The position numbers were made by a program, and so were the translations under genes. Shown in pieces: positions 9,977 through 64,000 of a stretch of 64,000 nucleotides of DNA (its first letter is position 1; each line of letters begins with the position of its first letter). The stretch is from the IMG/VR virus record IMGVR_UViG_3300032313_001465, positions 84,582-148,581 of that record, one strand, 5' to 3'. A model generated the notes under the pieces. The model did not search any database. It was not told the origin of the DNA and was given only the letters and a program-made list of their open reading frames with translations. Origin of the DNA: a virus.

Positions 9977-10735
9977 ATGATTAAATTACTAAGTCTTTTA
10001 AAAGAAATAAAAGGTAAACCTAAAGCTATCTTTTTATCGGGTCCTGCAGGATCTGGGAAAACATTTATTTCTAAAAAATTAATCTCTTTAGACAAATTTC
10101 AAGTAATTAATATAGATGATACTTATGAGGAACTATTAAAATCTTCGGGTATGGGGATGAATCAAAAGAATTTTAGTCCTGAAGAGTTATCTCAAGCTAC
10201 TAAATTAATGGGTCGTGCTCAAGCAGTAACTAAAGAAAAATATGCTAAAGCACTTGAAGGATTAAACAATGTTATTATAGATGGTACAGGTGCTGCTTCA
10301 AAACCACTAATAAAGAAAAAATCAGAATTAGAAGCACTAGGATATGATACATTCATGTTAATAATTTGGACATCCCCTATAACTTCTTTATCTAGAAATG
10401 CAGAACGTGAACGTTCATTAATGCCAAGTATTGTGTTACGTACTTGGAGAGACATTAATAAAAATATAGATTTATATAAACAAGCATTTGGAGATAATAT
10501 AGCTATAATCAATAATGATCCTGAAGGTTTAGAAACCAAATTTGATGTTGAAGATATTAAGAAAAAATATTTTACAAAACAAATGGGAAAACCAAAAACA
10601 CCTGCAGAGCAAGAAAAATCTAAAAAAGAAACAGAACAGTTGAATAAAGATATAGAACAATTTATTAAAGAAAAACCACAATTCAACACCTTATCAGACG
10701 CTCAATCCAAAATAAATAAATTCATAAACAGCTAA
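9977..10735 (+). CDS. P-loop kinase (zeta-toxin/AAA_33-like) with MIKL leader
   Basis: GPAGSGKT Walker A; IIDGTG; RNAERER lid. Start placed at MIKLLSLLKE, just after the ATATTTAT motif. Confidence 0.7.
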   Translation: MIKLLSLLKEIKGKPKAIFLSGPAGSGKTFISKKLISLDKFQVINIDDTYEELLKSSGMGMNQKNFSPEELSQATKLMGRAQAVTKEKYAKALEGLNNVIIDGTGAASKPLIKKKSELEALGYDTFMLIIWTSPITSLSRNAERERSLMPSIVLRTWRDINKNIDLYKQAFGDNIAIINNDPEGLETKFDVEDIKKKYFTKQMGKPKTPAEQEKSKKETEQLNKDIEQFIKEKPQFNTLSDAQSKINKFINS

Positions 10736-11271
10736 TGATAAAACTTTTAGACCTCTTACGCGAAGAAAAACTAAATATTCTTAAACCTAGACGTTCCCCG
10801 GAAGAACGCCAATCTAACTTTCTTATTATAACCAATAAGAAAATTGAACAGTACATGAAGGATGGAGGCAAAGGTGATCTTGATTTAGCTAATACTAAAA
10901 TTACCTCACTACCAAATGGTCTAAAGGTTGGCGGTTTTCTGGATTTAAGAAATTCTTCCATCACTACATTACCAAATGGTTTAACGGTTGGAGATTATCT
11001 TTATTTAAGAGATACTAAAATTACATCATTACCCAATGATTTAACGGTTGGGGGTGAACTTGATTTAGCTAATATTAAAATTACTTCATTACCAAATGAT
11101 CTAACGGTTAGGGGTGATCTTAATTTAAGAGATACTAAAATTACATCATTACCAAATGGTCTAACAGTTGGAGGTAATCTTGATTTAGAAAATACTCCAA
11201 TAAGTAAAAAACATTCCGAAGAAGAAATTAAAAAAATGGTTCCGGGAGTAAAAGGCAATATTTATATATAA
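10735..11271 (+). CDS. Leucine-rich-repeat-like protein (20-aa repeats) with MIKL leader
   Basis: Repeats of LDLxNTKITSLPNxLxVGG; paralog at 21079. Confidence 0.75.
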   Translation: MIKLLDLLREEKLNILKPRRSPEERQSNFLIITNKKIEQYMKDGGKGDLDLANTKITSLPNGLKVGGFLDLRNSSITTLPNGLTVGDYLYLRDTKITSLPNDLTVGGELDLANIKITSLPNDLTVRGDLNLRDTKITSLPNGLTVGGNLDLENTPISKKHSEEEIKKMVPGVKGNIYI

Positions 11272-11282
11272 ACATAAAACAA

Positions 11283-11606
11283 ATGAAAAAATCAGAATTA
11301 AGACAAATTATTAAAGAGGAAATTAGTAAGGTGTTGAGTGAGATACAAACACCAATAGCTAATAAAACAGACAAATTTTTATTATATAGAAAGCCATCAT
11401 CTTCCCCTAGTCCGGGTCATGGTGCATATCTATTTTCATCTGGAAATACCCTAGATGAGTTATTTGATAATTGGATATTAACTATGCAATCCGGAGGATA
11501 TGGGTATAAAGGTCAATATTTAGATAATGAGCGCAAACGATTTGATATTGAACAAGAAAAATATTGGTCATCTCCTAGTTCATTTTACACACTCAAAATA
11601 AAATAA
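11283..11606 (+). CDS. Hypothetical protein with MKKSELRQIIKEE leader
   Basis: ORF with shared leader. Confidence 0.6.
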   Translation: MKKSELRQIIKEEISKVLSEIQTPIANKTDKFLLYRKPSSSPSPGHGAYLFSSGNTLDELFDNWILTMQSGGYGYKGQYLDNERKRFDIEQEKYWSSPSSFYTLKIK

Positions 11607-11611
11607 ATATA

Positions 11612-12004
11612 ATGAAAAAATCAGAATTAAGACAACTTATTAAAGAAGAAGTTGAATCTATAGTAAATGAGACACGTACTAAAGATTTTGAAGTAAAAGA
11701 TGAAATTGGTAAATTTTTTGTAGTTACATCCCCATATAAAGATAGTACTAAAGAAGATATATTATTTGATTCTGATGTTTTTCATTTTGCAAATCAAGTT
11801 AAAGAAGGACTATCATTACATGATGTTATAGGATTATACAAAAACAAATCAGATGCCAATAGAATAGCAACTGAAGCCTTAAAAGAACGTGATACCCATT
11901 TAGATGAATTAAAATCATCAATGGAAGAATTCAGAAACCATAAAAAAGAAACAGAAGATAAAAAATCAAAAGCTAAGGAATTAATTCAAAAATTAAAAAA
12001 ATAA
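11612..12004 (+). CDS. Hypothetical protein with MKKSELRQLIKEE leader
   Basis: ORF with shared leader; C-terminal coiled coil. Confidence 0.6.
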   Translation: MKKSELRQLIKEEVESIVNETRTKDFEVKDEIGKFFVVTSPYKDSTKEDILFDSDVFHFANQVKEGLSLHDVIGLYKNKSDANRIATEALKERDTHLDELKSSMEEFRNHKKETEDKKSKAKELIQKLKK

Positions 12005-13056
12005 TGAATTCTTTAGTAGAATATTTAATTATGCCTATTATAGGAGAATCTACCTATAAACCGGGAGTAGTATTACTTCCAGGAGCATTCAAACCCCCAA
12101 CCGAAGGACATTTTAATTTAGTTAAGGAATTGGCTATGGATCCTAGAACAAAAGAACTAATAATTATTATATCCTCAGGTCAGAGAGAAAATATAGGTTC
12201 TGAAGAATCTGAAAAAATATGGAAAATATATCTTAAACATCTTCCAAGTAATGTTAAAGTAATGATATCTCCTGAAAGTTCTCCAGTTAAAGCAGCATAT
12301 AGTATTATAAAAGATAATCCCGATACTCATTATTTAGTAGCAGTAGGATATAGAAATGAAAAAGATAAAAAGGATATCGATAGAATCAAATCCTCAGAAA
12401 AATATCCAAATGCTGAAGGATTAGTATATAAAACAGATTCATCCACAAGAGCTATAGACGCCCGAAAAGAACTAGAGTCAAATAATCAAGAAGGATTTAA
12501 TGAATATTTACCATCTCAACTTACCCCATCTGAAAAAAATAAAGTGTGGAATATATTAACTAAACCCCCAATCCAAGAGTCGGATCGAAAAGGAATTAAA
12601 GCATTTTCCCGTGAAATTATAACAACCAATGAATCACAATCTAAAGATTTTTCATTTTCATTAGAGGGGGGTTGGCTTCTTAAAGATGGGTTATTATCTT
12701 TATCAAATTCCATGATTGAAAGTGGAATAAATATTAAGCCGCTTCCTAAAGTTATATTAATAGAAGATGATAAAAGCAATGCATCTAATATTTTAGGTAA
12801 AACCGCTTATTATGATCCACAGAATAAAACAATAGTGCTTTATACTTTAAATCGTCATCCTATTGATGTGATGAAGAGCTTTTGTCATGAAATGTGGCAT
12901 CATCATCAAAACCTAGAAGGTAGATTAAACAATATAAATACTACTAATACTAATGAAGATGATTATTTAAATGAAATAGAAAAAGAAACATACTTAAATA
13001 GTCAGATTATATATAGGAATTGGGCTGATAAAATGAGAAAATTAAATAATGATTAA
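12004..13056 (+). CDS. Cytidyltransferase-like nucleotidyltransferase fused to an HExxH metallopeptidase-like domain
   Basis: PGAFKPPTEGH (HIGH-like) at the N-terminus; AYYDP...HEMWH at the C-terminus. Confidence 0.6.
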   Translation: MNSLVEYLIMPIIGESTYKPGVVLLPGAFKPPTEGHFNLVKELAMDPRTKELIIIISSGQRENIGSEESEKIWKIYLKHLPSNVKVMISPESSPVKAAYSIIKDNPDTHYLVAVGYRNEKDKKDIDRIKSSEKYPNAEGLVYKTDSSTRAIDARKELESNNQEGFNEYLPSQLTPSEKNKVWNILTKPPIQESDRKGIKAFSREIITTNESQSKDFSFSLEGGWLLKDGLLSLSNSMIESGINIKPLPKVILIEDDKSNASNILGKTAYYDPQNKTIVLYTLNRHPIDVMKSFCHEMWHHHQNLEGRLNNINTTNTNEDDYLNEIEKETYLNSQIIYRNWADKMRKLNND

Positions 13057-13567
13057 ATTGAAAGACATATTCGAAAACGAAGTAATAGATCAGGTATTTC
13101 AAATATATTGTGATCTTGATGGGGTGTTAGCAGATTTTGATAAACGATTCGAATATTTTGCAGGGATGTCTCCTTCTGAATATGAAAAAGCATTCGGAAC
13201 TAAAAAGTTTTGGGAACTGATAGACGAAAAAGTAGGTGTAAAATTTTGGACAGGAATACCGTGGATGTCGGATGGTAAAACACTTTGGGAATTTCTTCAA
13301 CCACACAATCCTATACTTTTATCCGCTCCCTCTAGAAATGAATCAAGTAAAATGGGTAAAAGAATTTGGGTTAAACGAAACATGCCTGGAACTAAACTTA
13401 TTTTAGCAAGTAGAAGTAATAAACAAAACTATTCTGATAAGTCTAACATACTTATCGACGATAGATTAGACACAATTGAAGAATGGAGAGCAAGAGGAGG
13501 AATAGGGATCCATCATACTTCAGCCGCATCAACAATAGCACAATTAAAAAAATTAGGATTTAAATAA
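13049..13567 (+). CDS. HAD-family 5'(3')-nucleotidase with MIKL leader
   Basis: DLDGVLADF, ILLSAP, ILIDDR, WRARGGIGI motifs. Confidence 0.8.
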   Translation: MIKLKDIFENEVIDQVFQIYCDLDGVLADFDKRFEYFAGMSPSEYEKAFGTKKFWELIDEKVGVKFWTGIPWMSDGKTLWEFLQPHNPILLSAPSRNESSKMGKRIWVKRNMPGTKLILASRSNKQNYSDKSNILIDDRLDTIEEWRARGGIGIHHTSAASTIAQLKKLGFK

Positions 13568-15168: not shown

Positions 15169-15366
15169 ATGGATAATTTTAGCGTAACTAAATGGAATAG
15201 AGAAAGATATATTGATGAAAACAAAGATGTTAAATCAACTAAAAAAATACAAGAAGCATATAATTCATTAATTTCTATGATTGAGAAAAAATCAAAACAA
15301 TTAAATGATGATGAATTATATGAATTACATGAAAAAATGAAATCGTTTTTTACAAAATCAATTTAA
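15169..15366 (+). CDS. Small hypothetical protein
   Basis: ORF with A-rich leader. Confidence 0.5.
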   Translation: MDNFSVTKWNRERYIDENKDVKSTKKIQEAYNSLISMIEKKSKQLNDDELYELHEKMKSFFTKSI

Positions 15367-15408
15367 CTTTTATACTATTTTACATATTTATTAATAAACA
15401 ATAACATA

Positions 15409-15936
15409 ATGAACAACGAATTTGATTTCAAAGGGTATTTAAAAAATAACCCACTATTAAAAGAAACTAATATTAATATCAATATTAACGAATCTAAACT
15501 TAGAGAAAGAGTAAAAGCCGAAATTTTATCTGCATTAAAAGAAAATGATGCATATGAAGGAATTGGGGAATTTGATAGTAATAAATCCGCTCGTATTAAA
15601 GAATTTATTATAGCACTTAATAGGCTTGTAGATGAATATCACGCAGAATTATACTTAAATGATAGTGTATTTGATGCTATTTCAATGGTGATAAAATATG
15701 CTCAAGAAGAAGCAATGAATATGAATGAAGCTGAAGAAAAAGACCAACCAGAAGAAGAAGAAACTCCAGAAGTAGCAGACGTAGAACCTGAAATTACGGG
15801 TGATGAAAAAATAGTACAAGACGCTTTAACAAAGGCATATGAAACTGCTAGTAAAATGGGTGATAAAAAATTATTAGACCAAATAGGAAACACTATTACA
15901 TTTTTTACCCGTACTCACATTGTAAGTAACAAATAA
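15409..15936 (+). CDS. Acidic hypothetical protein with several LxE sites
   Basis: LKE, INE, LKE, MNE sites; ATATTTAT at 15384. Confidence 0.55.
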   Translation: MNNEFDFKGYLKNNPLLKETNINININESKLRERVKAEILSALKENDAYEGIGEFDSNKSARIKEFIIALNRLVDEYHAELYLNDSVFDAISMVIKYAQEEAMNMNEAEEKDQPEEEETPEVADVEPEITGDEKIVQDALTKAYETASKMGDKKLLDQIGNTITFFTRTHIVSNK

Positions 15937-21078: not shown

Positions 21079-21495
21079 ATGATAAAACTTTTAGATCTTT
21101 TACGCGAAGAAAAGCTTGATATCCTTAAACCTAGACGCTCTGAGGAAGAACGCCAAGCTAACTTTCTCATTGCAACCAATAAAAAAATTGAACAATACAT
21201 AAAGGATGGAGGCAAAGGTGATCTTAATCTACAAAATACCCCAATTACTACATTACCAAATGATTTAACAGTTGGAGGTAATCTTTATTTAGATGGTAGT
21301 AAAATTACTACATTACCAAATGGTCTAAAGGTTGGTGGTTATCTTGATTTAGATAATACTAAAATTTCCACATTACCAAATGATCTAAAAGTTGGTAGTG
21401 ATCTTGATTTAAGAAATACTCCAATAAGTGAAAAATATTCCGAAGAAGAAATTAAAAAAATGGTTCCCGGAGTAAAAGGCGATATTTATACATAA
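21079..21495 (+). CDS. Leucine-rich-repeat-like protein, paralog of 10735
   Basis: Near-identical N- and C-termini; 40 aa (two repeats) shorter. Confidence 0.75.
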   Translation: MIKLLDLLREEKLDILKPRRSEEERQANFLIATNKKIEQYIKDGGKGDLNLQNTPITTLPNDLTVGGNLYLDGSKITTLPNGLKVGGYLDLDNTKISTLPNDLKVGSDLDLRNTPISEKYSEEEIKKMVPGVKGDIYT

Positions 21496-22051: not shown

Positions 22052-22426
22052 GTGATTAAGCTTATAGACATATTCAATCAACTTCTTCAAGAAGAAAAAG
22101 AAAAACGTGATAGATGTTTACGTATTGCTGATCGCAAATACGATAAACCATCTGCTTATAAATCAGGAGCCGTTGTAAGGTGTCGTAAAGGAGAGATTTG
22201 GAAAGACTTAAAAGAAGAAGAATCACTCCATAAATGGTTTAAACGTTCTGGTCCTAAAGGTAAAGAAGGTGGATGGGTAGATTGCAACGCACCTGATGGT
22301 AGTGGAGGATATAAAGCATGTGGTAGAAAAAAAGGTGAAAAACGTTCTAAATACCCATCTTGTCGTCCTACACCTGCACAATGTAAATCACCTGGAAAAG
22401 GTAAAAAATGGGGAAAAACAAAATGA
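22052..22426 (+). CDS. Basic Cys-rich hypothetical protein with MIKL leader
   Basis: GTG start; modules separated by LQEE and LKEEE. Confidence 0.55.
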   Translation: MIKLIDIFNQLLQEEKEKRDRCLRIADRKYDKPSAYKSGAVVRCRKGEIWKDLKEEESLHKWFKRSGPKGKEGGWVDCNAPDGSGGYKACGRKKGEKRSKYPSCRPTPAQCKSPGKGKKWGKTK

Positions 22427-23121
22427 TCAAACTATCAGATATCTTAAAAGAAATTATTGAGGGAACTTGTGGATATAATACAGATGTTAAAACAGGTAAA
22501 AAATTAGATACACCTGGTGGATTAAAAGAAGTAGATCCTAAAAAAGGAACAGGTAAAAAACCTAAGGGATCAGGTCGTCGTTTATACACAGATGAAAATC
22601 CAAAAGATACTGTATCTATTAAATTCAAAACTAAAGAAGATATAGTTGATACATTAAATAAAGATTCATTTAAAGCTAAATCCCACGCTCGCCAATCCCA
22701 AATTATTAATTTAATACACCAACGCGTTAGAGCTGCATATGGTAAAGCAAAAGATCCTGAAGTAAAATCTAGATTAAAACGCGCTCTAGACTATATTGAA
22801 TCTCGTAAAGAATCATCTAAAAAGAAAACAGAACGTTTAAATAAGCTAAAAGAAACATCAGACCCACAATCAGGTAAAGCAGCACCTTATGGTTCAGGAT
22901 ATGCTCCTGTTAAAGAATTAGTAACAGATACAGAAGTTATCTGTGATAACTGTGGATGGGAATGGGATATTGAAGATGGAGGGGAAGATTTATATATTTG
23001 TCATAAATGTGGTCATGATAATACTCCAGAACAATTAAATGAAAAATGTTGGAAAGGATATACTCAAAAAGGTATGAAAACAATGTTTGGTAAAAAATAT
23101 CCAAATTGTGTAAAAAAATAA
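22423..23121 (+). CDS. Modular hypothetical protein with MIKL leader and zinc ribbon
   Basis: Start at MIKLSDILKE (ATGA overlap); CDNC...CHKC; terminal KCWKGY...PNCVK module. Confidence 0.55.
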   Translation: MIKLSDILKEIIEGTCGYNTDVKTGKKLDTPGGLKEVDPKKGTGKKPKGSGRRLYTDENPKDTVSIKFKTKEDIVDTLNKDSFKAKSHARQSQIINLIHQRVRAAYGKAKDPEVKSRLKRALDYIESRKESSKKKTERLNKLKETSDPQSGKAAPYGSGYAPVKELVTDTEVICDNCGWEWDIEDGGEDLYICHKCGHDNTPEQLNEKCWKGYTQKGMKTMFGKKYPNCVKK

Positions 23122-23139: not shown

Positions 23140-23457
23140 ATGGTAAAACTACTTCAATTACTAACTGAAGCTAAAGAAAGCTTTGAACAATTTGCTACAA
23201 ATCGTTTAGCAGGTGCTGAAAAAATTATAGCTAATGCCAAAGAAAAGGGTGGTGATGCTTTATTAACATACACCCACTTTAAAATAAAACCATCTTACTA
23301 TAAAAAAGCTATAGATGGGAAATTTGATAAAGAATCCGCTAAAAAAGAATTTGAGCAAACATACAAAAAAATATCATTAGATATGACTCAAACTGAATTT
23401 CAAAGAGAGGTTGGTCGTTTAGAAGTATTAGGTGAACTATTAATAAGAGAAAAATAA
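23140..23457 (+). CDS. Hypothetical protein with MVKLLQLLTE leader
   Basis: ORF; ATATTTATA at 23123. Confidence 0.55.
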   Translation: MVKLLQLLTEAKESFEQFATNRLAGAEKIIANAKEKGGDALLTYTHFKIKPSYYKKAIDGKFDKESAKKEFEQTYKKISLDMTQTEFQREVGRLEVLGELLIREK

Positions 23458-23458
23458 T

Positions 23459-23878
23459 ATGATTAAATTAACAGATATATTAAACGAAGCAGAGATAAAT
23501 AAATGTCCGTCTCCAACTCAAAGTATTGAGTTAAACCTTCAAAATAGACAGAAGGCAATTAATGAATATGGATATGGTCCCTTAAATCCTAATGAACCTA
23601 ATGAAAAGTTTTGGCAAGCTAAAGCAGATATGTGGAAACTTGATTCTGTAAAAGAGGCTAAAACATCACGTTGTGGTAATTGTGCGGCATTTGATGTTAC
23701 AGAAAAAACACTAAATTGTATAGCTAAAGGAATAGGAAACGATGAAGGATCAGAAGATCCATTTGACGTAATTAAAGCAGGACAATTAGGATATTGTAGG
23801 TTTTTAAAATTCAAATGTGCTGCTGCTCGAACTTGCGATGCTTGGGTTGTTGGTGGTCCAATTAAAGATCCAATGTAA
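23459..23878 (+). CDS. Cys-rich hypothetical protein with MIKL leader
   Basis: CGNC...GYC...C...CDAW, a possible metal-binding pattern. Confidence 0.55.
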   Translation: MIKLTDILNEAEINKCPSPTQSIELNLQNRQKAINEYGYGPLNPNEPNEKFWQAKADMWKLDSVKEAKTSRCGNCAAFDVTEKTLNCIAKGIGNDEGSEDPFDVIKAGQLGYCRFLKFKCAAARTCDAWVVGGPIKDPM

Positions 23879-24141
23879 TGAAACCATATACTGACGTTTT
23901 AACAACGGAAAATACAATTATTAGGGAGTTTGGTGATAACATAGACCCCGTTGAATTAAAATGGCATATGGACTCTTCTTCCCGCCACGTTACCATTTTA
24001 GAGGGTAAAGGATGGAAATATCAAGAAGATAATAAATTACCTTTGGAACTTAACGAAGGGGATTGTATATTTATACCAAAACAAACATTTCACCGTATTT
24101 ATAAAGGAACAACCCCATTAAAAATAAAAATTAAACAATGA
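23878..24141 (+). CDS. Cupin-fold protein
   Basis: WHMD...LEGKGW...GDCIFIPKQTFHRI. Confidence 0.65.
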   Translation: MKPYTDVLTTENTIIREFGDNIDPVELKWHMDSSSRHVTILEGKGWKYQEDNKLPLELNEGDCIFIPKQTFHRIYKGTTPLKIKIKQ

Positions 24142-24428
24142 AAAAACCAGAATTAAAGCAAATTATTAAAGAAGAAATACAAAAGATATTAAGTGAACAG
24201 CAAAAACGTATGCAAAAGCTTGCAGGTATTAACGAAGATAACACATTTAGTGACAATTACACAGTTAGTAATGAACAATATAAATTGATGGATAGTTATG
24301 TAAATCAACGTGCACTCCGTGATTTTCTAAATGCCGCTGAAAACATGATGGAAGATTTTCATGAAGCAGGATTTCCGGCAAGAGATGCATTTTATTGGTT
24401 TTATACTAAGCTAACTGCAAATATTTAG
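24138..24428 (+). CDS. Hypothetical protein with a double leader (MKKPELKQIIKEE + RMQKLAGINE)
   Basis: Both leader types in tandem. Confidence 0.6.
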   Translation: MKKPELKQIIKEEIQKILSEQQKRMQKLAGINEDNTFSDNYTVSNEQYKLMDSYVNQRALRDFLNAAENMMEDFHEAGFPARDAFYWFYTKLTANI

Positions 24429-24463: not shown

Positions 24464-24745
24464 ATGGCAAAATTAAACAAACAATTCCGACGTATGCAAA
24501 AGCTTGCAGGAATTCTTAACGAAAACGAGGAAATAGATAATTTTATTGATGTATTAACAGATATGGCTATTAAAGCTAACATCATTAAAGACAAAGATAT
24601 AAATAAAGACGAAGTAATAGATGCATTATATGATACATGGGAAGATATGGGATTTGATGATTATGAAGAAACAGGACAGGGGATTAGTACATCAGATTAT
24701 AATAGATCTTTAGAAATATTTACCAATTATATTAAAGATAAATAA
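24464..24745 (+). CDS. Acidic hypothetical protein with RMQKLAGILNE leader
   Basis: Leader shared with 62528 and 63493. Confidence 0.6.
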   Translation: MAKLNKQFRRMQKLAGILNENEEIDNFIDVLTDMAIKANIIKDKDINKDEVIDALYDTWEDMGFDDYEETGQGISTSDYNRSLEIFTNYIKDK

Positions 24746-26244: not shown

Positions 26245-26520
26245 ATGTCTAAAAAAGAAAAATACTTCGAAACCAAAACCATGAAGATAGGAGGAGCACT
26301 CCATCATTTCTTTAGAACTGAGGAATCACCAAATTGGAAATACCATAATTTCTCAGGTCCTGCTATTGAACCTGTAGAAAGTGGAAGTACATTTAAGAAA
26401 TCATATTACTTATATGGTATTCAATATACATCTGAACAATTTAAAGAAGCAGTTAGAGATAGAGAAGGTCTTCCATTCCACAAAACGGCAGCATTTAAAC
26501 AAGGATCTAACAGAACTTAG
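26245..26520 (+). CDS. Hypothetical protein
   Basis: ORF; HNFSGPAIE...YYLYG motif. Confidence 0.55.
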   Translation: MSKKEKYFETKTMKIGGALHHFFRTEESPNWKYHNFSGPAIEPVESGSTFKKSYYLYGIQYTSEQFKEAVRDREGLPFHKTAAFKQGSNRT

Positions 26521-26550
26521 TTGGGAGTATAAATAAAATTTATTATCTTA
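26521..26550 (+). promoter_or_regulatory. Bacteroidota-type promoter TTG-N20-TATCTT(A)
   Basis: Same architecture as 8182 and 24841. Confidence 0.55.
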
Positions 26551-26564
26551 TAAAAAAATAAGTT

Positions 26565-27095: not shown

Positions 27096-27116
27096 TATTT
27101 ATCATAAAAACATATA

Positions 27117-28016
27117 ATGAAGAAATCTGATCTTAAAAAACATATTAAAGAAGAAATACTTTCGATCCTAAAAGAAGCATCAACAGCATTAGTAACTACT
27201 AAAGGAGGAACAAAACCTGTATCATTCTCATCCCCTTCAGAATTAAGCGCTCTTAAAACGGATGCTAACGTATCATCAATCACAACAACAGCAGGGCAAA
27301 AGATTAAAGAAACTAAAAAAGAAATGAAAGAAGATAAATTCGATGATAAAATAACAAATCTTGAAAAATATACTTATACTGTAAATGGGAAAAAAGTAAC
27401 TCCGGAAATTGGTTATTTTGATCATTCATTAAAAGCTATGATATCCACTCCAAGAAGTGGTGATGAGTATTTTGATTATGAATTTTATAGAATTGGCGAA
27501 CCTGATGAAAGTGGTAATATTGAATTATCTCCTGAAAAAGGTAAAAAAGGAATGTATACTGAAGAAATGGATACTTCAGGATTTAAATCTGGTAGAGAAT
27601 TTATTAATATAAAATTACAAAAATATCCTAAAGCTGTAGCTAAAATTAATCAATTAATTAATATGATTGGTGAAGATAAATTCACAATGGAAATGGCTAA
27701 ATGGTTGTTTGATTTCTTTAATAATGCTTCATACGAAAGTCCAGTTAACGAAGCAAAAATTGAATCTGATTTTTTTGAACGAGAACCTAAATCTAAAGAT
27801 ATTGAGAAAGGAGAAGGCATAATAGCTAAAACTACAAAGCTTTTAAAATTTCAAAAAGAATTAAAAACATTATCTAAAGATATGCAAGATTTAGCTGCTG
27901 AATATAGAGAAGCTGAAGGATCTGATAAAGATGAAATTTTACGAACATTAAAAGTTAAAACTGCTGCTAAAAAGGAATTAGAGAAAAAAATAGAACAACT
28001 TGAAAGATATGTATAG
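27117..28016 (+). CDS. Modular hypothetical protein with MKKSDLKKHIKEE leader
   Basis: Leader; internal LKE/IKE/MKE/VNE sites; coiled-coil tail. Confidence 0.55.
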   Translation: MKKSDLKKHIKEEILSILKEASTALVTTKGGTKPVSFSSPSELSALKTDANVSSITTTAGQKIKETKKEMKEDKFDDKITNLEKYTYTVNGKKVTPEIGYFDHSLKAMISTPRSGDEYFDYEFYRIGEPDESGNIELSPEKGKKGMYTEEMDTSGFKSGREFINIKLQKYPKAVAKINQLINMIGEDKFTMEMAKWLFDFFNNASYESPVNEAKIESDFFEREPKSKDIEKGEGIIAKTTKLLKFQKELKTLSKDMQDLAAEYREAEGSDKDEILRTLKVKTAAKKELEKKIEQLERYV

Positions 28017-28671: not shown

Positions 28672-28674
28672 GTT

Positions 28675-30255: not shown

Positions 30256-30266
30256 AATAAACAAAA

Positions 30267-32195: not shown

Positions 32196-33047
32196 TTGAT
32201 GAAACATAATAGGACAAAAAATACAGGTATACTATTTGAATTATTAACAAGACAGATTACTTCAGATATTCTATCAGGTAAAGATTCACCTGCATCAAAA
32301 ATAATCAAATCTCATTTTGTTAATACTGAATTAGGGAAAGAATACAAGTTATATGAGTCTATTTTTAAAAATAACTTTGTTAGCGAAGCTAAAGCTAATA
32401 TGGTTATAAACACGGTATTAGAATCTTCTAAAAAGTTAAATCGTACAACTTTAAGAAAACAAAAATACAATTTAATTAAGGAAATAAAAGACCACTATAA
32501 CTTAGACGAATTTTTTAAAACTAAAGTTTCAAACTACAAAGAATTAGCATCTATATATGTTTTATTTGAAGTACATAGTGATCCAACATATTCAAATCCA
32601 CAAATTACTATAAATAATAAAACTACTCTTTTAGAATATTTAACAAAACCCAAAAGGGAAAAAGAACACACCCAAACCATTATTGAGGAGTTTCAAACAT
32701 ACGACAAAGATTTACGTATTTTAACTTACAAGATTTTACTTGATAAATTTAATACAAAACATGCTCATTTAAATGAGAACCAAAAATTAGTACTCAAAGA
32801 ATTTATCAACTCAATAGATTCAGCTCCAAAATTGATGAGATTTTATAATGATAAGATAAACGAAATCAAATCTGAAATAAAAACTCAAATCAACAAAACA
32901 GAAGATGCTGTTGTTAAAATTAAATTAAAGGAAGTAAGTAAACTACTAACTGAAGTTGATAAGAATCAAAAAGTTAAAACAAATAATTTAGTTGACTTAC
33001 TTCAATATTTTGAACTTTTAGAAGAATTAAAACATACTAATGGATAA
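32196..33047 (+). CDS. Conserved-looking head-module hypothetical protein
   Basis: Helical protein between portal and protease; KNTGILFELLTRQIT. Confidence 0.55.
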   Translation: MMKHNRTKNTGILFELLTRQITSDILSGKDSPASKIIKSHFVNTELGKEYKLYESIFKNNFVSEAKANMVINTVLESSKKLNRTTLRKQKYNLIKEIKDHYNLDEFFKTKVSNYKELASIYVLFEVHSDPTYSNPQITINNKTTLLEYLTKPKREKEHTQTIIEEFQTYDKDLRILTYKILLDKFNTKHAHLNENQKLVLKEFINSIDSAPKLMRFYNDKINEIKSEIKTQINKTEDAVVKIKLKEVSKLLTEVDKNQKVKTNNLVDLLQYFELLEELKHTNG

Positions 33048-33453
33048 TTTAAAAGGGAAAATTAAAAAGATATGTCAAGAATATCTTAAAAAACTAAAAG
33101 AAGAATCTACAACAGGTGGTGGAACAGCTAGTAGTGCCGGAATGACTACAGGTACTGGAGAACAATATGCTACACCATTTGCCTTTAATCCAAATAAAAA
33201 AGCTAAAGGTACAGCCAGTAATTACTACTATAAGTTAGGATATAAATTGGCACCTAACCAAGTAACTGAAATAGATAAATCTACATATGGAACCGGAAAT
33301 TTAGGACCGGGTCCAAAAGCAACTGAACGTGGAGTAGAAGATAATTATTATGTAAAGGCGTTTGGTTACAAAGTAGTTGATCGTAAAAAACAAGCAGACG
33401 CTTCTAAAGCTGTAGATTATAAAGATTTATGGGGAAAAACATATAAATATTAA
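33040..33453 (+). CDS. Head-module hypothetical protein
   Basis: LKEE|STT leader; YATPFAF. Confidence 0.5.
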   Translation: MDNLKGKIKKICQEYLKKLKEESTTGGGTASSAGMTTGTGEQYATPFAFNPNKKAKGTASNYYYKLGYKLAPNQVTEIDKSTYGTGNLGPGPKATERGVEDNYYVKAFGYKVVDRKKQADASKAVDYKDLWGKTYKY

Positions 33454-33993: not shown

Positions 33994-35205
33994 ATGAAAA
34001 CATTACAAACACAATATAATCTTATTAAAGAAGGAAAAGGAAGTAAACATGTATTTTTAAAGGAAGCAAAAAGCTTATATCCTGACATGATTACTAATTT
34101 TTCAACTTTTGAACAAACTGAAAAAATTCTTAAAAATAGAGGAGTAATTAACGAAAATTTTGTTGGATTACAACCTATTAACGATTGGGAACCATCTCCA
34201 AAACAAGACTATGAAATAGCATTTAAAAAATTCTTATCTGAAGTAGAAGAAGAAAAAGTTAAAGCTGATACTAAAAAAGTGTCTAAATATGTAGAAGATA
34301 CTGATGCTCATAGTTTTGATAATAAAGATCGTAAAAATATTGATAATTTAAGTGGTCAAGAAGTACTTAATGGGTTTTATACCGAATTAAAAGCGCCTAA
34401 AAACGCAGATAAAACGAAAGACGAATTAATGGATATCGTTACTAAAAATCTATCAAAAGATCCGTTATACTACATTAAAAACGGCCAATTTGGAACTGAA
34501 GGAGTGGGATATACTGAAGACGCTCCAGGTTTAGGTAAGCCTAAAGAAGCAAAAGGTAAATATAAATCAAGTGGATATGGCGATTTAGATAATAAACAAA
34601 CAGCTCCAAAATCAAACGTTAAGGATTCAGGAAAAAGTGAATACAAAACTGGTATGCCTAAGAAAGTAAAAGAAATGGATATGAAAGCTCAATCTTCTAA
34701 AGGTGTACAAAAAATGGCTACTCCTGGTAAACCAAAAACTATAAAACTAAATGAAATAGGAATGTTTCATGATCCTATGGGATATAATAAAGGAGCAAAA
34801 TCTCAAAAGGAAGTAGCTCGTGATATATTAATGAATGCTGGATTGTCTGATGAAGAAATAAAAAAGTTCATTAGTGATAATATGTTTAAAAAAGGAAGAT
34901 TAGATGATTTAGCTAAAGAATATATTAAATCCCTTAAAGGACTAAATGAAAATCAAGAATCAAATACAGATGTATTAAAAGATTTAATATCAAGACATGA
35001 TTGGTACTTTGAAATGAGTGATGATAATAGAAAATATAAAGATGGTCAAGCATCTGAAAAGAAAATTATGGATTTAGTAAATAGAATGGGAGATGAAGGC
35101 AAAAAAATCTATAATTCAATGGCACCAAAAGATAGACAATTAAAAGAATCCGTAGTTGATAGAATAATAGAATCTATTCTTGAAAGACTTAAGAAAATTA
35201 AATAA
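33994..35205 (+). CDS. Putative prohead core/internal protein
   Basis: Multiple LxE sites (IKE, INE, LSE, LNE x2, LKE); immediately upstream of the protease. Confidence 0.5.
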   Translation: MKTLQTQYNLIKEGKGSKHVFLKEAKSLYPDMITNFSTFEQTEKILKNRGVINENFVGLQPINDWEPSPKQDYEIAFKKFLSEVEEEKVKADTKKVSKYVEDTDAHSFDNKDRKNIDNLSGQEVLNGFYTELKAPKNADKTKDELMDIVTKNLSKDPLYYIKNGQFGTEGVGYTEDAPGLGKPKEAKGKYKSSGYGDLDNKQTAPKSNVKDSGKSEYKTGMPKKVKEMDMKAQSSKGVQKMATPGKPKTIKLNEIGMFHDPMGYNKGAKSQKEVARDILMNAGLSDEEIKKFISDNMFKKGRLDDLAKEYIKSLKGLNENQESNTDVLKDLISRHDWYFEMSDDNRKYKDGQASEKKIMDLVNRMGDEGKKIYNSMAPKDRQLKESVVDRIIESILERLKKIK

Positions 35206-35206
35206 A

Positions 35207-35827
35207 ATGAGTAAACAACTTCTAATAGAAACTAGACCATTCCAAGTTAATCCAATGCAACTTGTTGAAGGAACCAAAGGATCTTCAGGAAATCCATTAG
35301 TAGAAGGTATTTTAGCTACAGTAGAAGTAAAAAATGGAAATGGAAGATACTACAAGAGAGAGTTATGGGAAAGGGAATTAGAAACATACATGCAAAGTAT
35401 TAAAGAAAATCGTGCAACTGGAGAATTAGATCACCCCAGCACTGAAGTTATTAACTTAAAAAATGTATCTCATGCTATCAAAGATATTTGGTGGGATGGG
35501 GACAACATAATGGGTAAAATCGAAATTCTACCTACCCCATCAGGTAATATCCTAAAAGCACTTATAGAAAGCAATATCTCAGTAGGAGTATCTTCAAGAG
35601 GAATGGGTACTTTAAAACAAGAAGGCGATTTAATGGAAGTACAAGATGATTTTACATTAACATGTTGGGATTTTGTATCTACTCCTTCTAATCCAGGTAG
35701 CTGGATGCATCCAATAAATGGAATGATGAACGAAGGTTTACAATCAATTAAAACAAATAAGTATTCTAAAGTAAATTCTATTCTTTTTGAAATATTATGC
35801 GCTCACGGCACTTGCCCAATAATTTAA
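35207..35827 (+). CDS. Prohead protease (T4 gp21-like)
   Basis: NGNGRYY, GELDHP, VGVSSRGMG, WDFVSTPS. Start reassigned to MSKQLLIE. Confidence 0.93.
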   Translation: MSKQLLIETRPFQVNPMQLVEGTKGSSGNPLVEGILATVEVKNGNGRYYKRELWERELETYMQSIKENRATGELDHPSTEVINLKNVSHAIKDIWWDGDNIMGKIEILPTPSGNILKALIESNISVGVSSRGMGTLKQEGDLMEVQDDFTLTCWDFVSTPSNPGSWMHPINGMMNEGLQSIKTNKYSKVNSILFEILCAHGTCPII

Positions 35828-37136: not shown

Positions 37137-38780
37137 ATGGCAAACATTCAAAACTTACTCGAATCAGCTAACCCGTATAAATCACTACAAGGTGATGCGG
37201 CTAGATTAGCAAACAAATGGAGTAGAACAGGATTGTTAGAAGGTATCAAAAATGAAACCGAGAAAAACAATATGTCTATGATCCTTGAAAACCAAGCAAA
37301 ACAATTGGTAATTGAAGCCTCTCAAACAGGAGGTGGTACTTCTTCAACAGCTACTTTTACAGCAGGTGTTGGTGAACAATGGGCAGGTGTAGCTCTTCCG
37401 TTAGTTCGTAAGATCTTCGGTCAAATTGCATCAAAAGAATTCGTTAGTGTTCAACCAATGAACTTACCTTCAGGTCTAGTGTTTTTCTTAGATTTCCAAT
37501 ATGGTACATCTAAAAATCCATTTACAGCAGGTAAATCAATGTATGGTGATACTGGTTCTAACTTTGGTAATACAAACACTGGTGGTCTATATGGTGCTGG
37601 TAGATTTGGTTACTCAGTTAACAACACTTCATCTATTCAGGCAGCAACAACTGGTTCAGCTACTTGGTCTACTTTTGATCTAGATAGTGATTATTCAGCT
37701 TCAGCAGCCGCTGGTTCTTGGAAAACATTAACTGTAACTTTATCATCTACAACTGATTTCTTAGCAGCTAGATCATTTACTCTTACTTCTGCTTCTAACA
37801 TCGCAGTAACAGATAACTTACCTGCATTTACTACTTTTAATACAGCAAATAACACTGTAACTTTCGTTATTACTGGTTCAAAAATAACTGATGCTTTTGC
37901 TCCAGCTGGTTCATTACCAAACGTTACTTGTTCATATTCATTACAACCAACTGATAAATACAGAGGTGATTTTGAAGATGCTAACACTGCTTTGAACGCA
38001 AACAACAGTTCAATTACAATTCCTCAAATCAACGTTCAAATGAGATCTGAAGCAATTGTTGCTAAAACAAGAAAATTAAAAGCAGCATGGACTCCGGAAT
38101 TCGCTCAAGATTTAAATGCCTACCATGCATTAGATGCTGAAGCTGAATTAACTAGCATTATGAGTGAATACATCAGTTTAGAAATTGACTTAGAAATTTT
38201 GGATATGTTGATCGAAACAGCAGCCGCAGGTACTGAATATTGGTCAGCAGTAAATAACCAAAGTTTAAGTGTAAGTGGTACTACTGTAACTAACAACCCA
38301 TCTTTAGGTTTCTTTAACACACAAGGACAATGGTTCCAAACTTTAGGAACTAAAATCCAAAAATTATCAAACGCAATTCACCAAAGAACATTAAGAGGTG
38401 GTGCAAACTTCATCGTTTGTTCTCCAACAGTAGCAACTATCTTGGAATCAATCCCAGGTTTTGCAAGTACTTCTGATGGTGAAGCTTCAAAAATGACTTA
38501 TGCATTTGGTGTACAAAAAATGGGTCAATTGAATGGTAGATATCAAGTATACAAAAATCCATACATGACAGAAAACACTATATTGATGGGTTACAGAGGT
38601 CAACAATTCTTGGAAACAGGTGCAGTTTTTGCTCCATATATTCCATTGATCATGACTCCGTTAGTGTACGATCCAAACACATTTACTCCTAACAAAGGTC
38701 TATTAACTAGATATGCAAAGAAAATGGTAAGACCTGAGTTTTATGCAAAGATCTTCGTTTCAGGTTTAAATACTCTATAG
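37137..38780 (+). CDS. Major capsid protein (T4 gp23-like)
   Basis: KWSRTGLLEG, VQPMNLPSGLVF, KTRKLKAAWTPEFAQDL, APYIPL, TRYA. Confidence 0.95.
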   Translation: MANIQNLLESANPYKSLQGDAARLANKWSRTGLLEGIKNETEKNNMSMILENQAKQLVIEASQTGGGTSSTATFTAGVGEQWAGVALPLVRKIFGQIASKEFVSVQPMNLPSGLVFFLDFQYGTSKNPFTAGKSMYGDTGSNFGNTNTGGLYGAGRFGYSVNNTSSIQAATTGSATWSTFDLDSDYSASAAAGSWKTLTVTLSSTTDFLAARSFTLTSASNIAVTDNLPAFTTFNTANNTVTFVITGSKITDAFAPAGSLPNVTCSYSLQPTDKYRGDFEDANTALNANNSSITIPQINVQMRSEAIVAKTRKLKAAWTPEFAQDLNAYHALDAEAELTSIMSEYISLEIDLEILDMLIETAAAGTEYWSAVNNQSLSVSGTTVTNNPSLGFFNTQGQWFQTLGTKIQKLSNAIHQRTLRGGANFIVCSPTVATILESIPGFASTSDGEASKMTYAFGVQKMGQLNGRYQVYKNPYMTENTILMGYRGQQFLETGAVFAPYIPLIMTPLVYDPNTFTPNKGLLTRYAKKMVRPEFYAKIFVSGLNTL

Positions 38781-45492: not shown

Positions 45493-45505
45493 TATTTATA
45501 ATAAA

Positions 45506-49071: not shown

Positions 49072-49111
49072 ATCCTCTTCGTATATGTATAATAAACGAA
49101 GGGGATTTTTT
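49072..49111 (+). promoter_or_regulatory. Hairpin whose loop holds a promoter-like ATATGTATAATAA; also terminator-like
   Basis: atcctcttcgt / acgaaggggat arms (one G-U pair), then a T run and ATG 49112. Confidence 0.5.
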
Positions 49112-61776: not shown

Positions 61777-62205
61777 ATGAAAGTAACAGAATTTAGAAAA
61801 CTAATCCGAGAAGAAATAAGTAAGGTGTTGAAAGAAGAGAAACTTCCTGAAGACACAAAATACGATATTGATGATTTAATTGATAATGTTATTATAACCA
61901 CACTTATTGAAGATATGGGATTAACCCCTATAGGTCTGACTCAAGCTATTCATTATTTGATTCAAAAATTACAAATAAAGTATCAACAAATAAAAGGTGA
62001 AAATAGTTTAGCTGAAAATAGTATTAATACTTATTACAAAGACTTAATAATCCAACAAATTAATAAACGATTGTTTAAAATATTTGATAGAGGTGGAATG
62101 GTAGAATCTGAATACCAAGATCTTCAAAATTATCTTAAAATGTTAGATGATAAAAACAACAAACAATCAAAAACAAACAAAAACAATGAAAACAACAGAA
62201 TTTAG
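61777..62205 (+). CDS. Cassette gene with MKVTEFRKLIREE leader
   Basis: Shared leader. Confidence 0.6.
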   Translation: MKVTEFRKLIREEISKVLKEEKLPEDTKYDIDDLIDNVIITTLIEDMGLTPIGLTQAIHYLIQKLQIKYQQIKGENSLAENSINTYYKDLIIQQINKRLFKIFDRGGMVESEYQDLQNYLKMLDDKNNKQSKTNKNNENNRI

Positions 62206-62491
62206 AAAACTAATCCGAGAAGAAGTTCGTAAAGTAGTTAAAGAAAATGAATTTAATGATTTAAATTCAATAGTTCAAAAACTTAAACCAAGATGGGGTG
62301 ATGTATCTATAAAAGATAATAAAATACGGTTGAGAACTTATTATAAGAACGGTAATCTAAAAAATTGGTATACTATTGAAAAAATAGGTGATGATATGTA
62401 TCGTTTTGGTAGAGGAGGAAAACAATTAAGAGATTGGTCTTTAGATGATTTAATGTTTAATCTTGTATATAACAAAAATATTAGTTTATAA
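62186..62491 (+). CDS. Cassette gene with MKTTEFRKLIREE leader
   Basis: Start reassigned from 62147. Confidence 0.6.
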   Translation: MKTTEFRKLIREEVRKVVKENEFNDLNSIVQKLKPRWGDVSIKDNKIRLRTYYKNGNLKNWYTIEKIGDDMYRFGRGGKQLRDWSLDDLMFNLVYNKNISL

Positions 62492-62527
62492 AAACAACAA
62501 ACAATCAAAAACAAAAACAAAAACAAA

Positions 62528-62926
62528 ATGAAAAAACAAATACTAAGCGAACAATTTCGACGTATGCAAAAATTAGCAGGAATTATTAATGAAGGTCAAG
62601 AAAAATATCCAAAAGGTTTTACTCCATATACACCCACCAAAGAAGACGATGAAAATTATGATGGAAAAGTATTAGCTGCCTATACAGCACCTATGGATGG
62701 GTGGGATGAAAATAATTCGGATACTGTAGTAGTTATGAAAGATGAGGAGGGCTTTTGGGTAGATGGATATCTTAGCTTTGGTGATTTTGAAGACGAGGAA
62801 GGTACAGGACCATTCAAAACCCAAAAAGAAGCCGAAGATAAGGCTTATGAAATAATGGAAGACATTGTAGATAATTGGGAAGATGAGGATTATGATGATG
62901 AAGATGATGACGACGATGATTATTAA
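62528..62926 (+). CDS. Acidic cassette gene with QFRRMQKLAGIINE leader
   Basis: First 66 bp identical to 63493; poly-Asp tail. Confidence 0.65.
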   Translation: MKKQILSEQFRRMQKLAGIINEGQEKYPKGFTPYTPTKEDDENYDGKVLAAYTAPMDGWDENNSDTVVVMKDEEGFWVDGYLSFGDFEDEEGTGPFKTQKEAEDKAYEIMEDIVDNWEDEDYDDEDDDDDDY

Positions 62927-62970
62927 TTAAAAATAAACAATGAAAGCAACAGAATTTAGAAAACTAATCC
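62894..62970 (+). repeat. 77-bp direct repeat (second copy 63799-63875)
   Basis: Spans the poly-Asp tail, spacer and the next leader. Confidence 0.9.
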
Positions 62971-63461
62971 GTGAAGAAGTTAGAAAAATATTAACTGAAG
63001 CAAAATCCGAAAATTATCCTTTTATGTCAACTCCAGAGCAAGAAAAATTATATGATAGACTTGCTACAGACTTAGAAAAATTTATAAATAATATAGCTAC
63101 AAAATTAGAAATTAATCCTTCAAATATTAGAATGATATGTAGTGGATTAGGGGATAAAGGAGAATATAGAAATAAAGGATTAGTAGTTCAAATTAAAGCT
63201 AATGATAGTAAATGGAAAGGGATACATGGTAATAATCTTATTATACAAACTATAAATGACGAAGGTGTATTAATAGATACAAAAGAGGTTGAAATAAAAG
63301 GATCTAAAAATAAAGAATTAAGAGATATTTGGAATAAAGCAATAGATCTAGAAATGGACGATTATGTGTCACAGTTTAATACAAAATTAGCAAGTTCACT
63401 TACCCCAGAAGAAGCAAAATTAATACATCAATATACTCCAGTAATAATAACTGGTAAATAA
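62940..63461 (+). CDS. Cassette gene with MKATEFRKLIREE leader
   Basis: Shared leader. Confidence 0.6.
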   Translation: MKATEFRKLIREEVRKILTEAKSENYPFMSTPEQEKLYDRLATDLEKFINNIATKLEINPSNIRMICSGLGDKGEYRNKGLVVQIKANDSKWKGIHGNNLIIQTINDEGVLIDTKEVEIKGSKNKELRDIWNKAIDLEMDDYVSQFNTKLASSLTPEEAKLIHQYTPVIITGK

Positions 63462-63492
63462 TCAAAAACAATCAAAAACAATCAAAAACAAA

Positions 63493-63831
63493 ATGAAAAA
63501 ACAAATACTAAGCGAACAATTTCGACGTATGCAAAAATTAGCAGGAATTATTAATGAAAGCGAATTTAAAGTGGGGGATACAATAAAAATACCATTTACT
63601 TTATCTACAGGTGATGAAAGTGAAGGAGAAATTTTAGCAATTTCTACATATTTATCTAACAAAAAAGCAATTGATAAGGCTATTAGAGACAGTGGATGGG
63701 AAGGTGGAGAAAAAGAAGAATTAACTTGGTACAAAATAAAAACTCCAGATGGGATCGAATGGATAGATAGTGAGGAATTATCGGTAATGGGTGATGAAGA
63801 TGATGAAGATGATGACGACGATGATTATTAA
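63493..63831 (+). CDS. Acidic cassette gene with QFRRMQKLAGIINE leader
   Basis: Leader and tail identical to 62528; different middle (FKVGDTIK, SH3/KOW-like). Confidence 0.65.
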   Translation: MKKQILSEQFRRMQKLAGIINESEFKVGDTIKIPFTLSTGDESEGEILAISTYLSNKKAIDKAIRDSGWEGGEKEELTWYKIKTPDGIEWIDSEELSVMGDEDDEDDDDDDY

Positions 63832-63844
63832 TTAAAAATAAACA

Positions 63845-64000
63845 ATGAAAGCAACAGAATTTAGAAAACTAATCCAAGAAGAAGTTCGTAAAGTATTAAA
63901 CGAGGCTATGTCTTGGGACAAAAACACAATTAACAAATTTTTTGCATATTTGAAACGTCAGCACGGTATGAAAGCAGTCCCTGAATTTAAAACAGATACC
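63845..64000 (+). CDS. Cassette gene with MKATEFRKLIQEE leader, 3'-truncated
   Basis: Manual translation MKATEFRKLIQEEVRKVLNEAMSWDK..., open to the window end. Confidence 0.6.
   Translation, partial: MKATEFRKLIQEEVRKVLNEAMSWDKNTINKFFAYLKRQHGMKAVPEFKTDT

Follow-up and report, generated by a model that had tools for sequence, protein, structure and literature searches.

The window, a 64,000-nucleotide stretch of DNA, belongs to the 148.6-kb genome of a lake phage, a T4-like but distant relative of T4 with approximately 217 genes. Leader A, B or C stands at the start of 22 of these genes, 19 of them inside the window (Table 1), and the other three leader genes lie at genome positions 387 (B), 20582 (B) and 44218 (A). 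Leader A has 10 residues (MIKLxDLLxE), leader B has 20, and leader C has approximately 20 (20–22), including the motif RMQKLAGI. The first-pass annotation had listed about 20 proteins with shared leaders, and all 20 listed sites were found in place, on 19 genes, since the gene at 24138 had been entered under both B and C. The genome holds three classes of interchangeable tag, or four if a probable type D is counted.

Table 1. Leader genes and head-assembly genes of the window.
Position	Strand	Feature	Evidence or remark
9977..10735	+	Leader A (9977-10006), P-loop kinase-like payload	Pfam AAA_33 8.6e-10, Zeta_toxin 1.6e-9
10735..11271	+	Leader A, leucine-rich-repeat (LRR) payload	Leader matrix, Pfam
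11283..11606	+	Leader B (first 20 aa), payload of no assigned family	Leader matrix
11612..12004	+	Leader B, payload of no assigned family	Leader matrix
13049..13567	+	Leader A variant, 5'(3')-deoxyribonucleotidase	PHROG 2643 1.4e-24 from residue 16
15169..15936	+	Two genes (15169-15366, 15409-15936), probable leader type D	Absent from the first-pass list
21079..21495	+	Leader A, LRR payload	Leader matrix; paralogy
22052..22426	+	Leader A variant, read from a GTG codon, with its first L-x-E at 12-14; payload basic and DUF5872-like	
22423..23121	+	Leader A, basic payload with Cys4 ribbon-like motif	
23140..23457	+	Leader A, payload of no assigned family	Leader matrix
23459..23878	+	Leader A, Cys-rich payload	Leader matrix
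24138..24428	+	Leaders B and C in tandem (24138-24236), putative cut site at end of each, 63-aa acidic payload	
24464..24745	+	Leader C (24464-24523), acidic payload	
27117..28016	+	Leader B, 279-aa payload of no assigned family	Leader matrix
33040..33453	+	Small head-module protein	B-type leader at start of its orthologs in relatives
35180..35827	+	Prohead protease, gp21 type	Pfam Peptidase_S77 (PF03420) 3.8e-29
36029..37096	+	Scaffold protein; last 15 residues (37049-37093) behind I-I-E site, with leader-C motif	
37137..38780	+	Major capsid protein, gp23 type	58.8% identity to immuto capsid
61777..62205	+	Leader B, payload of no assigned family	Leader matrix
62186..62491	+	Leader B, basic payload of no assigned family	Leader matrix
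62528..62926	+	Leader C (62528-62593), acidic payload with terminal poly-Asp/Glu tail	
62940..63461	+	Leader B, payload of no assigned family	Leader matrix
63493..63831	+	Leader C (63493-63558), acidic payload with terminal poly-Asp/Glu tail	
63845..64000	+	Leader B, payload	ORF crosses contig end into overlapping contig start

Scoring matrices for A, B and C, built without the Met column, were run against this genome. Nine A matches scored at least 19.8 bits, the next best being a non-coding site at 15.7 bits; ten B matches scored at least 45 bits, with the next best at 12.8 bits; and C gave four matches. Every match coincided with the first or second Met of a plus-strand ORF, i.e. the leaders are N-terminal only. 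When the first 36 residues encoded by each of the 217 genes were compared in an unbiased blastp-short run, a single cluster of 23 emerged, in which one spurious link joined the 22 leader genes; the remaining N-terminal clusters were small, consisting of paralogs only, two or three genes each. The shared leaders proposed on unrelated payloads are confirmed and lie far beyond chance; related payloads within the genome were confined to three LRR proteins and the pair 62528/63493. As had also been stated, similarity ends at [LIVM]-x-E, directly past which identity drops from approximately 55% to background: pairwise identity per column was 0.55 for leader A (positions 2–10) and 0.58 for leader B (positions 2–20), and 0.08 and 0.07, respectively, over the next 20–30 residues. 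Invariant leader residues are written with several codons (four for the Leu at position 4 of leader A), which points to selection on the peptide and not on the DNA.

Leader A is conserved at positions 2, 3, 4, 7, 8 and 10, among them the four that count in the IPIII tag of T4, and it closes with D-L-L-K-E, in agreement with the N-terminus of this phage's scaffold. Position 10, which was outside the search pattern, was Glu in 72 of 79 IMG/VR copies. The kinase-like domain of the 9977 gene begins at residue 13–18 (Pfam), and kinases of this type with the same tag were also found in IMG/VR, as were a nucleotidase of the 13049 type (locus L227) and a payload of the 23459 type (locus L232), each again with its tag. 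The cut site in the 13049 leader is probably I-F-E at residues 7–9. In phage immuto, the ortholog of 22052 likewise starts with GTG and that of 23140 retains an A-like leader. The 10735 payload has paralogs in 21079 and in the gene at genome position 387, which is B-tagged (E 1e-31), so that one LRR payload family occurs behind A and behind B, a case of leader swapping. A-tagged paralogs of 250–280 aa in LR756508 were considered as Alt-like ADP-ribosyltransferases and dropped on finding no Pfam match.

In IMG/VR copies of leader B, position 18 was L/V/I/M and position 20 was Glu, each in 86 of 87, both positions being outside the search pattern; these copies span 73 unique payloads in 54 clusters. 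The matrices from this genome were too narrow for the diverged B leaders of immuto, which unbiased clustering recovered, and a tblastn search with leader B against cultured phages gave no match. A promoter-like ATATTTATA lies 25 nt upstream of 11283, and the promoter-like motif was also present 13, 22 and 26 nt upstream of 21079, 27117 and 61777, respectively. The same ATATTTATA is common to the tail and head operons; it also precedes non-structural genes, including a thioredoxin gene and a glycosyltransferase gene, and is present in the early region, so that late timing is not proven by it.

In the head module, the protease likely starts at the ATG at 35207, giving M-S-K-Q-L-L-I-E, an N-terminus that parallels that of T4 gp21. 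Based on alignment with the T4 gp23 site (L-T-E|A), the capsid protein is predicted to be cut after V-I-E at residue 61. The L-x-E sites that the first-pass annotation had pointed to at the N-termini of protease, scaffold and capsid are present, but they carry little weight by themselves because L-x-E occurs approximately 1.4 times per 100 aa of the proteome. The 33040 gene sits between the portal-adjacent gene and the protease, the place of gp67/gp68 in T4, and in relatives B-, D- and A-like leaders were found on genes within head modules. Type D is probably represented by the N-termini of the 15169 and 15409 genes, which resemble a five-member cluster of immuto ('NFDLKKFLxENKL') whose leaders end in L-x-E and of which one member lies between protease and scaffold. 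An S77 protease was encoded on four of five large tagged IMG/VR contigs.

Leader C reproduces the C-terminal 15 residues of the scaffold. Among 81 exact RMQKLAGI matches in IMG/VR, 66 lay 1–4 residues before the stop of scaffold homologs, all of these directly upstream of the capsid gene, and 14 lay near the start of small proteins, 6–15 residues past the Met, with a cut site behind the motif. The site thus precedes the peptide in the scaffold and follows it in the cargo: [LIVM]-x-E occurs 3–10 residues ahead of the motif in 55 of 63 scaffolds, and ends at most 5 residues past it in 14 of 14 C leaders. Scaffold homologs with the same C-terminal end were found in immuto, Mel-JY01, LR756508 and 63 IMG/VR loci, and both forms, scaffold C-terminus and cargo N-terminus, are present in the window phage, immuto and LR756508. 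Since both are nearly invariant across the compared phages, co-variation of scaffold end and cargo leader is uninformative. In a tblastn search of cultured phages with leader C, immuto was the only match. The C-terminus of T4 gp22 does not carry the C motif, an observation that counts against the reading favored below and shows that code C is not general to T4-like phages. A limited literature search, not aimed at this point, found no scaffold peptide naturally re-used as an N-terminal cargo tag, and we know of no such re-use of a shell-binding scaffold peptide.

Many payloads are acidic (pI 4–6), in contrast to the basic T4 internal proteins, and a nucleotidase and a nucleotide-kinase-like enzyme would be unusual head cargo; both observations also sit uneasily with head loading. 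The payloads are depleted in the cut motif, with observed to shuffle-expected ratios for [LI]xE of 0.63 versus 1.11 in other ORFs (B), 0.93 versus 1.25 (A), and 0.82 versus 1.23 in this genome; the controls throughout were long ORFs, which differ in size from the payloads.

The distribution of the leaders in IMG/VR and in relatives indicates that the system characterizes a large clade of uncultured aquatic phages; the claim that this phage had itself expanded the mechanism is not upheld. Cultured carriers were limited to Flavobacterium phage immuto and, for leader A, Microcystis phage Mel-JY01, and the leaders are conserved across phages whose capsids are only 35–70% identical.

Taken together, we consider it probable that the leaders are capsid-targeting propeptides of the T4 kind, which this clade has expanded into several codes; their most likely function is to bring proteins into the phage head. 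As a short amphipathic N-terminal peptide, the leader would dock the new protein on the assembling scaffold core or shell, and a gp21-type protease would remove it after the terminal [LIVM]-x-E. The freed payload would then be inside the head and exit with the DNA, some of it being degraded with the core, and at least three codes (A, B and C) would operate side by side. Binding, cleavage, packaging and delivery are all inferred here from sequence. The earlier proposal of a protease-cut head-loading tag gains partial support, apart from its attribution to this phage, from the S77 gene, the scaffold identity of C, the conserved [LIVM]-x-E, leader swapping, motif depletion and the leaders in head modules.

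Some tagged proteins, those that are small and acidic and end in poly-Asp/Glu, may act as helpers of the prohead core and be degraded or expelled instead of being injected as effectors. It appears unlikely, however, that this holds for most tagged proteins, i.e. that the leaders do take them into the prohead but as scaffold-core assembly helpers comparable to T4 gp67/gp68. Such a role would suit the C-tagged proteins, which are small and very acidic, two of them with tails like that of T4 gp67, as well as the B leader on a conserved head-module protein. Nevertheless, enzymes (kinase-like, nucleotidase) and LRR binders retain their tags across many phages, the payload diversity behind B is ill-suited to structural helpers, and depletion of the cut motif within payloads argues that the mature protein survives.

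The leaders might also be recognized by a different machinery, for instance a chaperone, a modifying enzyme or a secretion or localization system, or act as a degradation signal, with an incidental likeness to head-protease sites. Immuto does encode GroES/GroEL, but the identity of leader C with the scaffold end, the tagged genes within head modules and the almost invariant terminal [LIVM]-x-E make this improbable, and none of the three clusters in the window has a candidate enzyme next to it. We regard it as very improbable that the shared starts are maintained at the DNA or RNA level, as cassettes for recombination or translation initiation, with a peptide that has no role. The genes at 62528 and 63493 do share 66 identical bases plus flanks, and A/C-rich, cassette-like untranslated leaders precede the genes at 61.7–64 kb; yet up to four codons are used per invariant residue, the same peptide recurs at a scaffold C-terminus, and conservation extends across phages with such divergent capsids.

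Within the propeptide reading, and by comparison with the scaffolds of P22 and herpesviruses, the scaffold probably binds the shell through its C-terminal peptide, in which case C-tagged cargo would occupy scaffold sites on the capsid protein. We suggest, tentatively, that the clade may have turned this peptide into a transferable cargo tag that the protease can release, a naturally occurring viral equivalent of the loading peptides of encapsulins, alongside two or three tags that would dock other prohead-core parts, with tag class setting the site and copy number of the packed protein. To our knowledge, the binding partner of the T4 targeting tag is not known; a tag identical to the scaffold terminal peptide provides a testable answer for class C, namely that it competes for the scaffold's shell site, and the cultured phage immuto (Flavobacterium sp. 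LMO8) makes the leader system testable. If true, abundant T4-like phages of aquatic habitats would commonly load many proteins into the head, hundreds of uncharacterized small proteins would be flagged as likely first-minute host-takeover or anti-defense factors, and ready-made short tags would be at hand for packing foreign proteins into phage heads.

The leader concept itself is already known from the T4 internal proteins. In T4, the tags are 10–19 aa long, with residues 4 and 7 serving targeting and 8 and 10 processing, and gp21 cleaves after L/I-x-E (PMC9026906). The T4 tags (IPI, IPII, IPIII and Alt, gp21-removed) and the present leaders have in common a homologous S77 protease, a 10–20-residue N-terminal tag ending in L/I-x-E on otherwise unrelated proteins, the hydrophobic positions 4, 7 and 8 and Glu 10 of leader A, and a tag that resembles the N-terminus of the respective phage's scaffold (T4 IPII/IPIII tags end in F-I-A-E-A, and T4 gp22 starts ...L-I-A-E-A). 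In contrast, the tag sequences are not homologous and agree in position pattern alone, approximately 22 genes are tagged here versus four in T4, with three or four tag classes in one genome, the payloads include enzymes and LRR proteins, and class C derives from a scaffold C-terminus without counterpart in T4 gp22.

In the giant phages phiKZ and SPN3US, the prohead protease likewise processes many head-internal proteins at a short Glu-ending motif, but their propeptides are long and are not known to form a common short tag across unrelated proteins. In herpesviruses, a homologous maturational protease cuts off the scaffold C-terminal peptide. Shell-binding C-terminal scaffold ends are represented by the P22 gp8 hook domain and the last 25 residues of herpesvirus UL26/UL26.5 (PMC12005531). 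The present scaffold shares the short C-terminal peptide, here with [LIVM]-x-E before it, and differs in that its binding to a gp23-type capsid is proposed by analogy. Finally, encapsulin cargo-loading peptides are terminal, 10–20 residues long, and bring unrelated cargo into an HK97-fold shell as it assembles (PMC11664910). The leaders resemble them as short terminal peptides on unrelated cargo; encapsulin tags, however, are mostly C-terminal and uncleaved and serve a shell without DNA, whereas here an N-terminal tag is followed by a protease site in a true virus.

The first-pass annotation had described three families of N-terminal leaders shared by otherwise unrelated proteins of this phage, and every leader position that it gave was borne out; the shared-leader observation is confirmed. 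Using scoring matrices made without the Met column, we obtained nine matches of at least 19.8 bits for leader A (10 aa, MIKLxDLLxE; runner-up 15.7 bits, in a non-coding frame), ten of at least 45 bits for leader B (20 aa; runner-up 12.8 bits) and four for leader C (about 20 aa, containing RMQKLAGI). Every match fell on the first or second Met of a plus-strand ORF, and three of the leader genes lie beyond the window, at genome positions 387, 20582 and 44218. Unbiased clustering of 217 genes by their N-terminal 36 residues placed the 22 leader genes, about 10% of the phage's genes, in a single large cluster. Column identity was 0.55–0.58 within the leader and 0.07–0.08 directly past its terminal Glu, and the payloads (the remainder of each protein) were mutually unrelated except for an LRR trio and one pair. 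The recognised payload domains, namely P-loop kinase, 5'(3')-deoxyribonucleotidase and LRR repeats, begin only at about residue 13–18, which marks the leader as an add-on. The invariant leader residues are encoded by as many as four different codons, so that selection acts on the peptide.

Leaders and payloads also occur in different combinations. Members of one LRR payload family carry leader A in two cases (10735, 21079) and leader B in a third (genome 387; E = 1e-31), and gene 24138 carries B and C leaders in tandem, with a cut site closing each. The leaders of 62528 and 63493 are DNA-identical, and this pair is a recent duplication. Both of these C-tagged genes have near-identical poly-Asp/Glu tails, and the junction from each to the following B-tagged gene is DNA-identical (62894–62970 and 63799–63875 for tails and junctions); hence, recent duplication or recombination has expanded the 61.7–64 kb array.

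Leaders A and B were also found in IMG/VR. The nine-residue core of leader B, EFRKLIREE, occurred 97 times, with a Met exactly four residues upstream in 91 cases and most of the remainder compatible with GTG or TTG starts. Positions 18 and 20, which lie outside this search pattern, were L/V/I/M and Glu, respectively, each in 86/87 sequences, and position 21 was variable. The 73 unique B-tagged payloads fell into 54 clusters. A search with MIKLxDLL alone yielded 79 real ORFs; position 10, outside the pattern, was Glu in 72 of them, and identity was at background starting at position 11. The kinase, the nucleotidase, the LRR protein and the Cys-rich protein that are tagged in this phage recur, again tagged, in the A-leader contigs. 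In the uncultured phage LR756508 (L003), five adjacent paralogs of 247–281 aa (26274–32153) have A-like leaders of the form M-R/K-L-K-x-I/L-L-x-E; a Pfam search of these five gave no match.

The window is the final 64 kb of a 148,581-bp phage contig with overlapping ends, has a GC content of about 30% and carries nearly all genes on the plus strand. Since the contig ends repeat one another (window 63845–64000 and genome 1–130), the genome is either closed into a circle or terminally redundant; the window's last ORF (63845–64000) runs on at the contig start. After the cultured Flavobacterium phage immuto, the relatives of the capsid protein were, in order, Microcystis phage Mel-JY01, the 484-kb uncultured phage LR756508 and Rhodothermus phage RM378. 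LR756508 has an intein inserted in its S77 prohead protease gene (L003 5058–6782); Pfam identifies a LAGLIDADG endonuclease domain in this intein. Genes resembling GIY-YIG-type homing endonucleases lie among the structural and leader genes at 20290–21075, 45449–46129 and 49085–49819, with further copies at genome positions 24252 and 74849.

Coordinates of head-module genes, leader D genes and promoter-like motif sites (window positions unless a contig is named)
Feature	Position	Remarks
Capsid protein, T4 gp23 type	37137–38780	58.8% identity to immuto capsid
gp21-family prohead protease	35180–35827	Pfam Peptidase_S77, 3.8e-29
Scaffold protein	36029–37096	
Small head-module protein	33040–33453	Relatives' ortholog directly past the gene adjoining the portal gene, where T4 has gp67/gp68
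Leader D members	L001 (immuto) 3762, 17587, 18588, 25197; L005 1803	
Candidate leader D genes, window	15169–15366, 15409–15936	
ATATTTAT(A/C) motif, example sites	40388, 43802, 46120, 47280, 51402, 51999, 55433, 61751	

Leader C has its counterpart at the end of the scaffold protein. In the window scaffold, an I-I-E site precedes the last 15 residues, which include R-F-Q-K-L-A-G-I-I; the scaffolds of immuto, Mel-JY01 and LR756508 end in the same way. Exact RMQKLAGI gave at least 81 matches at no fewer than 80 loci in IMG/VR. Among the matches listed, the motif stood 1–4 residues before the stop codon of proteins of about 220–500 aa in 66/81, 6–15 residues past the Met of small proteins in 14/81, and elsewhere in 1/81. 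The C-terminal class, again among the matches listed, comprises scaffold homologs directly upstream of a gp23-type capsid gene, with the capsid found at 63 loci and scaffold similarity at 61. In the same set, [LIVM]-x-E lay 3–10 residues ahead of the motif in 55/63 distinct scaffold ends (exactly 6 in 40), and in all 14 listed N-terminal copies it ended at most 5 residues past the motif. A protease-type site, placed before the motif in scaffolds and after it in leaders, thus divides the peptide from the protein body in both. We know of no description of a cargo tag copied from a scaffold C-terminus, and none was found in limited literature searches not aimed at this point. In herpes simplex virus the last 25 scaffold residues are bound by the capsid protein (PMC12005531), and by analogy the RMQKLAGI peptide is probably the terminus through which the scaffold binds the shell. 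The GenBank annotation of the immuto scaffold (L001 25582–26823; MW353176.1 125582–126823) reads 'DNA polymerase phi-like protein', a label that is probably an artefact of the low-complexity acidic region.

Leaders were also found within the head modules of relatives. The relatives' orthologs of the small protein at 33040 have an N-terminal B-type leader of 16–20 residues, and unbiased clustering grouped the immuto ortholog with the B-tagged genes. Past its leader, the window protein has a Thr/Gly/Ser-rich stretch closing in G-E-Q-Y-A that is similar to the N-terminus predicted for the mature capsid protein, a likeness kept in relatives. Between the protease and scaffold genes of several relatives lie genes with A-like leaders and with leaders of a fourth family, D ('NFDLKKFLxENKL...', with an L-x-E end), which was absent from the first-pass annotation and has five members in immuto. 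Leader D is probably present in the window as well.

We compared observed [LI]-x-E counts in the payloads with composition-matched shuffles, taking other long ORFs from the same DNA as control. The observed/shuffled ratio was 0.63 for B payloads from IMG/VR (0/300 shuffles as low; other long ORFs 1.11), 0.93 for A payloads (1.25) and 0.82 for payloads of this genome (1.23). This depletion hints independently that the payloads meet the protease; since the payloads are shorter than the ORFs used as control, it is supportive only.

Nearly all operons for the tail, baseplate and head have a promoter-like motif, ATATTTAT(A/C), 12–35 nt ahead of their start. The window contains 29 copies against 12.6 ± 3.8 expected, 25 of them on the plus strand. 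The motif also precedes leader genes or clusters at 9977, 11283, 15409, 21079, 23140, 27117 and 61777, and the two leader genes that stand alone in the genome's other half. Because a thioredoxin gene and a glycosyltransferase gene have it too, the motif cannot be called strictly late. Its reverse complement includes the T4 late-promoter word TATAAATA. The untranslated leaders of the capsid gene (37097–37136) and of the 62–64 kb cassette genes (62147–62185, 62492–62527, 63462–63492) consist of A/C-rich repeats such as AACAAAAAC, which may act as a shared unstructured translation enhancer.

The proposal that the leaders are T4-style capsid-targeting propeptides, removed by the head protease, is largely supported by circumstantial evidence, namely the cut-site ends, the identity with the scaffold, the head-module genes and the motif depletion. 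Judged from sequence, the tagged proteins would be packaged, cleaved and delivered. Several payloads are small and very acidic, two of them with poly-Asp/Glu tails; instead of being injected as effectors, they may serve as core helpers.

The T4 tag has 10–19 residues, of which 4 and 7 are needed for targeting and 8 and 10 for processing, and is cut after L/I-x-E (PMC9026906); in leader A, positions 2, 3, 4, 7, 8 and 10 are conserved. In both phages the tag resembles the N-terminus of its own scaffold: in T4, F-I-A-E-A closes the IPII/IPIII tag and M-L-K-E-Q-L-I-A-E-A opens the gp22 scaffold; in the present phage, D-L-L-x-E closes leader A and the scaffold start includes R-D-L-L-K-E-A. T-even phages have diverse internal proteins with only the targeting tag in common, and a general route by which proteins could be loaded into the head has already been proposed for them (PMC3012670; PMC9026906). 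In comparison, the present phage carries tags on about 10% of its genes, uses several tag classes in parallel, includes enzymes and LRR proteins among its payloads and has one tag copied from the scaffold C-terminus, for which the encapsulin cargo-loading peptide is the nearest functional parallel (PMC11664910).
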